Below, piece after piece: positions 60,608-62,834 of a stretch of 64,000 bases of DNA. How positions within the stretch are numbered: position 1 is the first letter of the stretch; each line of letters begins with the position of its first letter. The notes under the pieces are model-generated. The model saw only the letters and a program-made list of their open reading frames with translations. It ran no database searches and was not told the origin of the DNA. Made by a program: the position numbers and the translations under genes. The stretch is from an uncultured Acidobacteriota bacterium (GTDB lineage: Bacteria > Acidobacteriota > CAIWXX01): positions 26,260 through 90,259 of the forward strand of contig CAIWXX010000053.1 of assembly GCA_903916735.1 (NCBI GenBank). The letters are read 5' to 3'.

Positions 60608-60961
60608 TTAAGAATCCGCCGGCACGATCATCGTTTGGAGTTTCTTGGCTGCCGTGTTGATGGCCAAACTTAGGAGGGGCAAGTTAATGTTGCGCACGCA
60701 AAGAATACATAAGCAACCCACTCTAATACTCTTCGTGATGAACCGACCCTCATCATAGATCAGATCAACATCGCAGGTTTTGCGCCGACGTTCAGTCATT
60801 AGCCCGGCCATTGTTTGAGCGATGGCGCGACCCACCGTTGAAAGGATTGCATCGTCGAAGAGAGCAGGCAGTGCAGACACAAGGATCCGTCCCTCTTCAT
60901 CACAGACAAATGAGCCCGTGACCCCTGTGACAGCATTAATATCGTTCAGTAGTTTTTTCAT
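60608..60961 (-). CDS. Roadblock/LC7 (MglB-like) domain protein
   Basis: MKKLLNDINAVTGVTGSFVCDEEGRILVSALP…TVGRAIAQTMAGL…VDLIYDEGRFITKSIRVGCLCILC…. 117 aa. Confidence 0.7.
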   Translation of the reverse strand: MKKLLNDINAVTGVTGSFVCDEEGRILVSALPALFDDAILSTVGRAIAQTMAGLMTERRRKTCDVDLIYDEGRFITKSIRVGCLCILCVRNINLPLLSLAINTAAKKLQTMIVPADS

Positions 60962-61031
60962 GATGTGCTCTTGGCTCTTCTACCGCTTGTCACAACCCAC
61001 CTCAGCGAGGTCTACTTCAAAAACTGTTCGG

Positions 61032-62159
61032 CTATTCGGGAGTCTCATACCACTGCACCCGCTCTCCAATCAATGCCCGCCGATGCCATTTCCCCGACTT
61101 TGGCGCCTCATCGATGATATGTAAGAGCCGGCGCGTCCTCTCTATGATGACTGTCGCATCATTCCCCAGCTTGTTCTCAGAAAAAGTAACGCATTTCTCA
61201 AGGTTAATAGTGGCGGTTTTGTACCATCCCCAATCGTTAGTACATAGTTCGAGGATACGTGACGTATCAATCTTCCCCTGCTCCTTCGGTCCACCTAGCT
61301 CATGATCATGGATGATGGCACAGATGGCTCTCAGGCAATCATCGTTGGTCTCCACCGACTGCAGTTTCCACAACAGCAAATCCGCCAGAGGGATTGTCTC
61401 CTCATCGGAATCCAACCTGTCGGCAAAATTGAGCTTGTGATATGAATTCAAAGTGTCCAAGAACACCTCAATTCCGATTTTCTTTTCCGAATGAATGAAC
61501 CTCAACAGCTGGCTTCCGTGCAGGAGATTGAATCGACGCTCAGGCAAATATCCCAACCTCTCCAAGATATGATTTATCTGCGCTGAATATTTGGCTCGGC
61601 TGGCCAGGTCCAGGATGCTCTCGTTACCGTTGGACGATGGCGCGATTCGATCAGTATTTGGGCAGCGCAAGCGGATTCCAGTATCCCCTGTCGCCCGTAA
61701 AACCACTCCTTGTGCTCGAGCGGCGGAAATGAACGAACGAACCTCCTCATTCAAATCCGTGGTGCGTGCAGCCGCTGCCTCCTGCACCGCTGCGTCCCTG
61801 GCGGTTGTTTCCACGCGCTCCCCCAGAAACTTCGTCAGCTTTTTTGCCGCCACGTTAACCGTTAAGTTCAGGAGGGGGACGTTAATGCTGCGCGCGCAAA
61901 GGACGCACAGACAGCCCGTTCCCAGGCTCTTGATGATGAGCCGGCTGTGACTATAGACGAGATCAATATCGCCGACTTTCCGCCGCTGCACGGCCGCCAT
62001 TCCGGTAATGGTTTGGACGATGGGCCGCCCGATGGCTGAAAGAGCCGCTTCATCAAGGCTATCGGGCAGCACGGAAGCCATCAACGTCCCGGCGTTGCTG
62101 CAGACGAAGGAACCCATCACGCCATGCACCGCATTGATATTTTTTAGCACGTCTTCCAT
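61032..62159 (-). CDS. Roadblock/LC7 domain protein fused to an unassigned C-terminal domain (paralog of 51868..52683)
   Basis: N-terminal MEDVLKNINAVHGVMGSFVCSNAGTLMASVLP…IGRPIVQTITGM…IDLVYSHSRLIIKSLGTGCLCVLC (Roadblock). C-terminal ~250 aa align with the stand-alone ORF 51868..52683. Confidence 0.65.
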   Translation of the reverse strand: MEDVLKNINAVHGVMGSFVCSNAGTLMASVLPDSLDEAALSAIGRPIVQTITGMAAVQRRKVGDIDLVYSHSRLIIKSLGTGCLCVLCARSINVPLLNLTVNVAAKKLTKFLGERVETTARDAAVQEAAAARTTDLNEEVRSFISAARAQGVVLRATGDTGIRLRCPNTDRIAPSSNGNESILDLASRAKYSAQINHILERLGYLPERRFNLLHGSQLLRFIHSEKKIGIEVFLDTLNSYHKLNFADRLDSDEETIPLADLLLWKLQSVETNDDCLRAICAIIHDHELGGPKEQGKIDTSRILELCTNDWGWYKTATINLEKCVTFSENKLGNDATVIIERTRRLLHIIDEAPKSGKWHRRALIGERVQWYETPE

Positions 62160-62180
62160 GGTTTGACCTCTTTATGCCAC

Positions 62181-62834
62181 TTAAGCCCAGGCAGCGAGAG
62201 AGTTTTTCACATCGGATGCCACCAGAATCGGCGATGCCTTTTCTTTCAGGTGCAAACCGACAAAGAAATTGGTCCTTCCTAAGACCTGAACCCTGTCATT
62301 ACCGAGGGCTACCGTGCCCCAATCGAAAGGACCTAGGGCCATTGCTTCGCCGATCTGGTCAGCGGCGGTACCCAGAAAGACGGCAACAGCTCCTTCTTTC
62401 TCCGCATTGCCTTCGGTCGCTTCGGCGAGAATAGTCCCGTCTCGAGCCACAATGACAGCTCCACTCACCGCTGCCATCTCGCTGAGATCTCGAACCAATT
62501 TGCGGAGTTTGTCATCCTCTGATGACTTCCCTGACTCGAGGCGCTGCATTCCCTCCAAGAGGATGCTACTCAAGCTCCGGTCTATTGTTCTTTCTGTCAT
62601 AGCGATGCCGTATTCCACGCTGAAAGTACCCGCCTTCCAACGCAAGAGCTCGAATACAGCCTCCTCTCCTACCAGAGAGCCAGTAAAGGCATGTACGATG
62701 TTGCCACCGCTACAGAAGATAACGCCTTCTTTTCCCAAATATTCCAGAGTTATCTTGACTTCGTTCATCTCCTGGCAATTCAACTGAATCAGGTTACTCA
62801 GGTTGAGGTCCTTCAAACTTCCTTCTAGTGACAT
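62181..62834 (-). CDS. DUF4388-like N-domain plus Roadblock/LC7 C-domain protein
   Basis: N-terminal LEGSLKDLNLSNLIQLNCQEMNEVKITL…GKEGVIFCSGGNIVHA…GEEAVFELLRWKAGTFSV (DUF4388 pattern). C-terminal …AVSGAVIVARDGTILAEA…. Confidence 0.6.
   Translation of the reverse strand: MSLEGSLKDLNLSNLIQLNCQEMNEVKITLEYLGKEGVIFCSGGNIVHAFTGSLVGEEAVFELLRWKAGTFSVEYGIAMTERTIDRSLSSILLEGMQRLESGKSSEDDKLRKLVRDLSEMAAVSGAVIVARDGTILAEATEGNAEKEGAVAVFLGTAADQIGEAMALGPFDWGTVALGNDRVQVLGRTNFFVGLHLKEKASPILVASDVKNSLAAWA

Follow-up and report, generated by a model that had tools for sequence, protein, structure and literature searches.

A trio of Roadblock genes in an uncultured Acidobacteriota bacterium: conserved relatives, small GTPases and a fusion to a nucleotidyltransferase-like domain

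Small-GTPase switches of the MglA/MglB type are the best-understood bacterial counterparts of the eukaryotic Ras/Rag-Roadblock systems, and in MglB, MglB/MglC and Ragulator alike the Roadblock domains serve as dimeric platforms for small GTPases. The MglA/MglB module is known from Myxococcus xanthus and Thermus thermophilus, with MglC and RomY as accessory proteins; to our knowledge, the accessory proteins of such modules are largely uncharted outside Myxococcus. Here we describe three consecutive Roadblock genes, termed A, B and C, from an uncultured Acidobacteriota bacterium (GTDB lineage CAIWXX01, assembly GCA_903916735.1). They lie in a stretch of 64,000 nucleotides (contig CAIWXX010000053.1, positions 26,260 to 90,259) that was analysed as a whole and is called the window below; all coordinates of the trio and its surroundings refer to it. 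In our reading A-B-C corresponds to one half, the accessory one, of an operon for a small-GTPase switch; the operon is conserved in Chloroflexota, and here this half stands alone. The C-terminal part of B is shared with a stand-alone gene, D, about 9 kb away.

The trio resembles the MglA/MglB module in that orthologs of A, B and C occur in operons with an MglA bearing the motif TVPGQ, and it resembles MglB/MglC in the presence of several Roadblock proteins per GTPase. It differs in having no adjacent MglA, in its sub-threshold similarity to the Robl_LC7 model and in the nucleotidyltransferase (NTase)-like domain of approximately 225 residues carried by B; moreover, related operons hold up to six Roadblock-domain genes, and a related subclade uses REC-Ras GTPases instead of MglA. 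Among PATAN proteins, the N-terminus of A belongs with the PF14332 family, which it matches well above threshold. PATAN is an output domain that binds PilB1/PilC (bioRxiv 10.1101/2021.06.11.447907). PatA-type proteins are PATAN-REC response regulators with this binding activity, whereas A is a PATAN-Roadblock protein lacking REC and, to judge from a near end-to-end match to PF14332 within 98 residues, seems to lack the α-helical insertion of the PatA-type domain. PATAN genes near MglA/MglB homologs have been reported (Makarova et al. 2006, as cited in PMC4316618). The Ragulator/LAMTOR-Rag and Asgard Roadblock-GTPase complexes are alike in having a platform of multiple Roadblock folds, a likeness confined to fold and architecture; the present context is bacterial and lacks a Rag-type GTPase that ends in a Roadblock domain. 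The architecture of the trio thus falls within that of the known MglB/PATAN systems, and what appears to be new is the Roadblock-NTase fusion: in the literature searched, no paper joins Roadblock, MglB and nucleotidyltransferase.

The trio, its relatives and their GTPases

The genes of the trio and their parts are as follows.

62181-62834, minus: gene A, PATAN(DUF4388)-Roadblock protein of 217 amino acids (aa)
62532..62825, minus: PATAN/DUF4388 domain of A, residues 4-101 (PF14332, model positions 1-120 of 122)
62184..62504, minus: Roadblock/LC7 domain of A, residues ~111-217 (A-type profile against PDB)
61032-62159, minus: gene B, Roadblock, long helix and degenerate nucleotidyltransferase-like domain, 375 aa
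61881..62159, minus: Roadblock domain of B, residues 1-93
61713..61880, minus: long connecting α-helix of B, residues 94-149 (AlphaFold model)
61035..61712, minus: NTase-like domain of B, residues 150-375
60608-60961, minus: gene C, stand-alone Roadblock protein of 117 aa, of the same subfamily as the N-terminal domain of B
62961..62989, minus: sigma-70-like promoter match TTGACA-17-TATGTT, ~125 nt upstream of A

The tight gaps (21 nt between A and B, 70 nt between B and C) are consistent with a single operon, and all three reading frames are intact. Unusually long spacers flank the trio on either side (60179-60607, 428 nt, and 62835-63183, 349 nt). Counts of promoter and terminator matches in the region are not above chance, and the sigma-70-like match is a positional hint only. 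Rfam gives no match in the trio region or its flanking spacers, and NCBIfam and PADLOC give none for A, B, C or D. A 103-aa open reading frame (ORF), 62825-63136, is called in some assemblies within the upstream spacer; it overlaps the start of A by 10 nt and is non-protein-like in appearance.

Residues 4-101 of A match PF14332 (DUF4388, now PatA_N/PATAN) at 60 bits, where the cut-off is 25 (E=3e-16), and the protein carries a precomputed PatA_N annotation; the DUF4388-like N-terminal fusion proposed from the bare sequence is thereby borne out. The Roadblock domains are more divergent. B (15 bits) and C (13.2 bits) miss the gathering threshold of the Pfam model Robl_LC7 (PF03259), which is 23 bits, and the C-terminus of A does not match this model at all. 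It has been noted that divergent MglB homologs often escape the Pfam model (PMC4316618). An A-type profile, however, finds PDB Roadblock chains over positions 111-220 (7f8m_A, E=6.7e-6; 7yh1_D, E=2.2e-5; 7f8f_A, E=8.8e-5), C is 51% identical to residues 1-112 of B (E=2e-39), and the domains of the trio display the helix, two strands, helix and three strands of the Roadblock superfamily fold. The Roadblock domain of A is also found as a separate 112-aa protein at an Anaerolineales locus (L053). The sequence-only reading, which saw three successive minus-strand genes each with a Roadblock domain, was therefore correct, as the ORF coordinates and the profile and identity evidence attest, yet structure or profile evidence was needed because the Pfam matches lie below threshold. 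We regard these domain-level statements as secure.

The AlphaFold model of B (predicted local distance difference test score, pLDDT, 90.4) places a single helix at residues 94-149, the middle of which varies in length and sequence among homologs (alignment columns ~125-190, gapped). The Roadblock subfamily to which C and the N-terminus of B belong occurs in four forms, namely alone (as C), joined to the NTase-like domain (as B), joined to DUF8082 and joined to V4R, a small-molecule-binding domain. This suggests a module with exchangeable sensor or adaptor domains. The V4R fusion, whose C-terminal, Cys-rich V4R domain scores 34.1 bits against a threshold of 31, was observed at L053 (13239-14099, minus) and also at L048 and L049.

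Full-length homologs of B number 275 and come almost without exception from Anaerolineae or other Chloroflexota; among the GTDB representatives, which do not include the present genome, the best match is 46% identical. Since the scan of the genome collection relied on one motif, DWGWYKT, it is biased toward B-like sequences. In all, 39 related B-type loci were examined, of which 35 (36 genes) were tabulated for their neighbours. In 29 of the 36 tabulated cases the gene directly upstream of the B-type gene encodes a PATAN-Roadblock protein, and in the remainder the two are parted by DUF8082 and HAMP genes. Beside this pair there is a GTPase gene at 34 of 39 loci, MglA in 28 and a REC-Ras protein in six. 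Another four loci are on contigs too short for the presence of a GTPase to be judged, and the last, L022, has none within its 10-kb flanks, the only well-flanked locus of this kind among the 39. The link to small-GTPase regulation that the sequence-only reading had drawn from the Roadblock domains is thus strongly supported by GTPases in the same operons, and the co-occurrence across genomes, which it had suggested examining, is seen for the fused form, which consistently accompanies Roadblock and GTPase genes.

The MglA homologs at the related loci bear the motifs GPPLSGKTT and TVPGQ, and some are named gliding-motility protein MglA by NCBI. At 28 of 39 loci the order Roadblock-MglA-Roadblock is found within 6 kb of the B-type gene; in L001 and L003-L006 it takes the form RoblU-MglA-RoblD next to the PatA_N-Robl and B-type genes. 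The usual arrangement is [REC-]Roadblock, PATAN-Roadblock, Roadblock-NTase, (Roadblock/DUF8082/HAMP), Roadblock, MglA, Roadblock. Of the informative relatives L005 is the nearest; its gene order is Robl0, A, B, C, RoblU, MglA, RoblD, and its proteins are 68% (A), 56% (B) and 51% (C, at the same gene position) identical to those of the trio. By this gene order, what the window contains is the first half of the L005 operon and no more; of the second half tblastn found no remnant.

In a more divergent subclade the GTPase directly downstream of the pair is a REC-Ras fusion (Pfam Ras E=1e-40, Response_reg E down to 6e-23), at these positions of the respective loci:

L029, 3092-4126: REC-Ras fusion
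L030, 11314-12381: REC-Ras fusion
L031, 2324-3481: REC-Ras fusion
L036, 11510-12517: REC-Ras fusion
L047, 8388-9296: REC-Ras fusion
L058, 12468-13391: REC-Ras fusion

Here a Ras-type GTPase stands beside Roadblock proteins, although bacterial GTPases of the Rup/Ras type have been reported to be uncoupled from MglB homologs (PMC4316618). The association of one PATAN-Roadblock and Roadblock-NTase pair with two GTPase families across Chloroflexota points to a common regulatory platform. Two further observations concern individual loci. In L027 (Anaerolineales) a second, divergently oriented MglA/Roadblock cluster with two extra MglA paralogs (11709-17825) lies a few kilobases from the canonical operon. 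In L054 (7634-11141), from a Chloroflexia metagenome-assembled genome (MAG), the PATAN-Roadblock, DUF8082, HAMP and B-type genes each appear as two overlapping ORFs, which could be frameshifts or long-read assembly errors.

In the proposed mechanism, A, B and C would assemble by Roadblock-Roadblock dimerization, as in MglB, MglB/MglC and Ragulator, and the resulting hetero-oligomeric platform would bind and regulate a small Ras-like GTPase whose gene lies elsewhere in the genome. In A, PATAN might provide an output or localization contact, by analogy with the cyanobacterial PATAN that binds the type IV pilus motor, and the NTase-derived domain of B would transfer no nucleotide, acting instead as a ligand- or partner-binding sensor or adaptor; the fusions of the same Roadblock subfamily to V4R and DUF8082 elsewhere are the basis for thinking of a sensor. 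We are evenly divided on whether A-B-C in fact constitutes such a Roadblock platform, regulating or localizing a small Ras-like GTPase, with PATAN as output and B as a non-catalytic binding module.

Several observations weigh against it, the foremost being that a GTPase partner was not found for this genome. The 64-kb window contains no MglA or Ras-like GTPase detectable by P-loop scan or tblastn, so that the absence of an adjacent MglA-type GTPase, already remarked from the sequence, extends to the entire stretch. Only one ORF of at least 100 aa, at 9782-10099 (105 aa), has a P-loop of the form GxxxxGK[ST]; it shows no other GTPase feature and was judged spurious. A tblastn search of the window with five MglA proteins and flanking Roadblock proteins from related loci gave nothing better than E=0.1. 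Among the top 120 MglA homolog matches none has the source signature of this MAG; P0441, considered as its MglA, comes from another sample. If an MglB is called 'coupled' when MglA lies within about four genes (PMC4316618), the orthologs of A, B and C are coupled at 28 of 39 loci and the trio itself is not. Nor was a type IV pilus or other output machine linked to the trio identified in the window. Finally, a trio without MglA is exceptional among its relatives, so that it is possibly a relic.

The trio might also be a remnant, decaying or without function, left when an ancestral MglA operon was split or lost its GTPase half. MglA, RoblU, RoblD and the upstream Robl0, present in close relatives such as L005, are missing from the window; the trio sits inside an unrelated catabolic cluster, between two genes that are adjacent in the related locus L008; and the GC content at 60-62 kb is 0.50, compared with 0.51-0.56 in the other 2-kb intervals. 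We nevertheless think a remnant unlikely. The three ORFs have remained open, B has every invariant or nearly invariant residue of its family alignment, and identical proteins occur on 7-12 independently assembled contigs. Pseudogene traces of the missing genes (MglA, RoblU, RoblD, Robl0) were sought by tblastn in the 349-nt and 428-nt spacers and none was found. Orphan MglB homologs are, moreover, frequent (328 of 749) and presumed functional (PMC4316618), and L022 provides a second arrangement lacking a GTPase.

The nucleotidyltransferase fold of B and D

The C-terminal domain of B has its counterpart in a gene elsewhere in the window:

51868-52683, minus: gene D, stand-alone nucleotidyltransferase of 271 aa with a full catalytic set

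Residues 138-371 of B and 26-264 of D are 32% identical (E=9e-32), in agreement with the earlier proposal that a C-terminal domain of B (~250 aa there, ~240 aa here) is paralogous to the whole of this ORF. That proposal left the shared domain unassigned; it is in fact assignable, and is a nucleotidyltransferase fold of the Pol-beta superfamily, of the MenT / ANT(2'') / LnuA / NTP_transf_5 type, with the α/β core and helical lobe that define such enzymes. No curated model (Pfam, NCBIfam, PADLOC) matches either the NTase domain of B or D. An exhaustive profile search yielded 2,693 clusters (50% identity) at E<=1e-3, mostly stand-alone proteins of 250-275 aa, with a minority of 370-450 aa that have an N-terminal extension. 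Of 71 diverse stand-alone representatives, 34 match PF14907 (NTP_transf_5, a model of uncharacterised nucleotidyltransferases) at E<=0.01 (best E=5.3e-8) and a few match Aminoglyc_resit or AbiEii; B and D themselves are unmatched at the PF14907 gathering threshold of 31.2 bits, and a fused homolog, P0049, scores 17.6 bits. A large uncharacterized NTase family is thus delineated, with approximately 2,700 clusters and members in Chloroflexota, Syntrophomonadaceae, Acidobacteriota and Thorarchaeota.

D shares with MenT/AbiEii (DUF1814), ANT(2'')-Ia, LnuA, the JHP933-type NTases and PF14907 the pattern hG..A, DxD, hDh and C-terminal K...D by which NTases are recognized. The family differs from the MenT/AbiEii-type enzymes in its low identity to solved NTase structures (9-17%) and in its own invariant motifs, DWG.Y.T.T.N and PK..W..R..G....WY, and B differs further in lacking catalytic Asp residues. 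Unlike the MenAT and AbiE toxin-antitoxin systems, the genes have no antitoxin-like partner and no PADLOC match, their neighbours being a metallophosphoesterase and catabolic or Roadblock genes; a reading as a defence or toxin-antitoxin system was dropped, NCBIfam, PADLOC and Rfam being empty. Three other matches were set aside. That of D to a de novo designed TIM barrel in the PDB (whole-sequence E=1.2e-6), the only match in that search, was treated as spurious, as it consists of four repeated weak segments with individual E values of 19-49, and those of D to DUF3106 and of B to thiovarsolin are sub-threshold and fall in variable or helical regions.

The catalytic set of D is complete (R43, G46, A49, D74, D76, D122, H132, K156, D169). 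D74, D76, K156 and D169 are present in all 71 representatives of the stand-alone family and D122 in 69 of them, R43, G46, A49 and H132 are invariant or nearly so, and the G..A/DxD/D/K/D pattern is identical across all 40+ stand-alone copies in the fetched loci. At the five corresponding positions B has I182-D184-E231-K265-A278, so that the first Asp of DxD is replaced by Ile and the C-terminal Asp by Ala, and the NTase motif is broken. B keeps G158, A/G161, H241 and the motifs DWGWYKT, PKS, W, R and WY; DWGWYKT, T, N, PKS, W, R, G and WY are essentially invariant in fused and stand-alone proteins alike. Among 52 fused proteins the first Asp of DxD is retained in 10 and is I, V, L or M in 37, the position of K156 is Lys in 28 and that of D169 is Asp in 10. 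These losses co-vary: the full D-D-D-K-D set survives in one and the same group of 10 proteins, P0058 and P0066 among them, and the remaining 42, including B, are without at least one of the five residues and mostly without two or more.

In MenT3, single substitutions of the Pol-beta Asp, the C-terminal Lys and the C-terminal Asp each abolish activity (PMC7450476); given the shared fold, these residues would correspond to D74, K156 and D169 of D. On this reading of the sequences D is very probably an active NTase, and B very probably has the fold together with a conserved surface or pocket while lacking activity as a transferase. Loss at the catalytic positions in 42 of 52 fused proteins is a pattern typical of a pseudoenzyme, and the co-variation offers a natural series from enzyme to pseudoenzyme that is directly testable.

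Alternatively, B might still be an enzyme, a Roadblock-tethered nucleotidyltransferase that modifies the GTPase, a Roadblock partner or a small molecule, with a metallophosphoesterase of the type found next to D able to reverse the modification. AMPylase-GEF (guanine nucleotide exchange factor) fusions such as Legionella DrrA would be a prokaryotic parallel. The 10 fused proteins with the full set indicate that the fusion began as a plausibly active enzyme and has stayed one in some lineages, and at least one of the 10 (P0058, L014) lies in an MglA operon; the consistent pairing of the stand-alone NTases with a metallophosphoesterase fits as well. B itself retains G158, D184, E231, H241, K265, all of the C-terminal motifs and nearly all other family-conserved residues, so that some residual or altered catalysis is conceivable, which also counts against its role as a purely non-catalytic module. 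We consider an active B improbable, however, because I182 and A278 replace Asp residues that are invariant in every stand-alone member, because constraint is relaxed at exactly the catalytic positions in four-fifths of the fused proteins (42/52), and because the MenT3 substitutions at the presumed equivalent residues are inactivating (PMC7450476).

Gene D and its catabolic cluster

D adjoins a metallophosphoesterase gene, as had been noticed from the sequence:

52688-53632, minus: metallophosphoesterase (PF00149, 32.2 bits against a cut-off of 21.5), separated from D by a 4-nt gap

D, which the sequence-only reading had called a distant stand-alone paralog, is no stray copy: it is one half of a deeply conserved NTase-metallophosphoesterase pair set among catabolic genes. 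The pair recurs in L007, L008 and L034-L063 (Chloroflexota and Syntrophomonadaceae) and in a Thorarchaeota MAG, L067, where the NTase is 43% and the phosphoesterase 39% identical. In L007 and L008, both from close Anaerolineae relatives, its neighbours are genes for class-III aminotransferases, aldehyde dehydrogenase and an amino-acid permease, together with a pot-like ABC transporter, a saccharopine-dehydrogenase-family enzyme and an AsnC regulator, a set that is found again in the window. The neighbours in L067 that recur in the window are an amino-acid permease, an AsnC regulator and an aldehyde:ferredoxin oxidoreductase. From these conserved contexts, the home of the stand-alone NTase is a catabolic cluster and not a GTPase module. 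D and the metallophosphoesterase probably form a nucleotidyl-transfer and hydrolysis pair acting on a metabolite or RNA in an amino-acid/polyamine catabolic cluster, and the family has what looks like an obligate metallophosphoesterase partner in such clusters. The sequence-only reading had envisaged that the shared domain might turn out to be a known enzyme family with no consistent Roadblock link. This is half true: the superfamily is known and the stand-alone form metabolic, but the fused form keeps constant company with Roadblock and GTPase genes.

The catabolic neighbourhood is conserved in its own right and continues on both sides of the trio:

49819-59664 and 63184-64000: conserved catabolic neighbourhood (also L007, L008, L067), with aldehyde:ferredoxin oxidoreductase, amino-acid permease, aldehyde dehydrogenase, two class-III aminotransferases, AsnC regulator and saccharopine-dehydrogenase-family enzyme

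That both Anaerolineae and a Thorarchaeota MAG possess it suggests that a metabolic module has been transferred horizontally.

The trio lies between the saccharopine-dehydrogenase and AsnC genes of this cluster, which in L008 are next to each other. It might be, then, that the proximity of the trio to D is functional and that the Roadblock proteins regulate the NTase/metallophosphoesterase system independently of a GTPase, with B perhaps binding the substrate or product of D. Being embedded in D's conserved gene cluster speaks for this, as do certain Anaerolineales loci. In L048 and L053 (and at least partly in L049, L055 and L057) a stand-alone NTase gene comes first, then, in the same orientation, an A-type Roadblock gene (~100-112 aa) and a C-type Roadblock-V4R/DUF8082 gene, with a metallophosphoesterase and a second NTase close by and no MglA within the fetched flanks (up to 10 kb). 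These loci keep a functional Roadblock-NTase link open. On the other side, no D-type gene was found within the fetched flanks of any of the 35 tabulated B-type loci, the D cluster lacks Roadblock genes in L007, L008 and the Thorarchaeota locus L067, as it usually does, and the A-B pair is predominantly partnered by a GTPase (34/39 loci). The 9-kb distance between B and D is accordingly most simply explained as coincidence, and we think a functional connection unlikely.

A broader proposal would unite these elements. The Roadblock-NTase fusion may represent a new layer of bacterial small-GTPase control, in which the NTase is active in about a fifth of cases and is a fossil binding domain elsewhere, including B; the stand-alone NTase and its metallophosphoesterase would then act as writer and eraser, and the dead domain would read their substrate or product. 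If that were true, the trio within D's cluster would be a link from metabolite to polarity or signalling, maybe without a dedicated adjacent GTPase. We rate this, too, as improbable; under the accessory-half interpretation favoured above, D would act separately from the trio, together with its metallophosphoesterase neighbour.

Other features of the window

The remainder of the window includes the following.

11063-29311, minus: type-III-secretion-like export gene cluster
31642-32367: sigma factor
34773-37352: 859-aa membrane protein with a spermidine-synthase domain
40936-42360: sigma-54-dependent REC-AAA+ activator

The export cluster, which lies in a genome that in this analysis had the appearance of an Anaerolineae one, encodes three FHA/YscD-like proteins, FHIPEP (SctV/FlhA, E=1e-224), FlhB/SctU, FliR/SctT and FliP/SctR, along with an FHA-FliN_C protein, a FliK/HpaP-like protein, an ATPase with a T3SS_ATPase_C domain and FliH/SctL. 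It also encodes a YscJ/FliF-family protein, a protein with a weak YscI-like match and a HrpB1/HrpK-like TPR protein.

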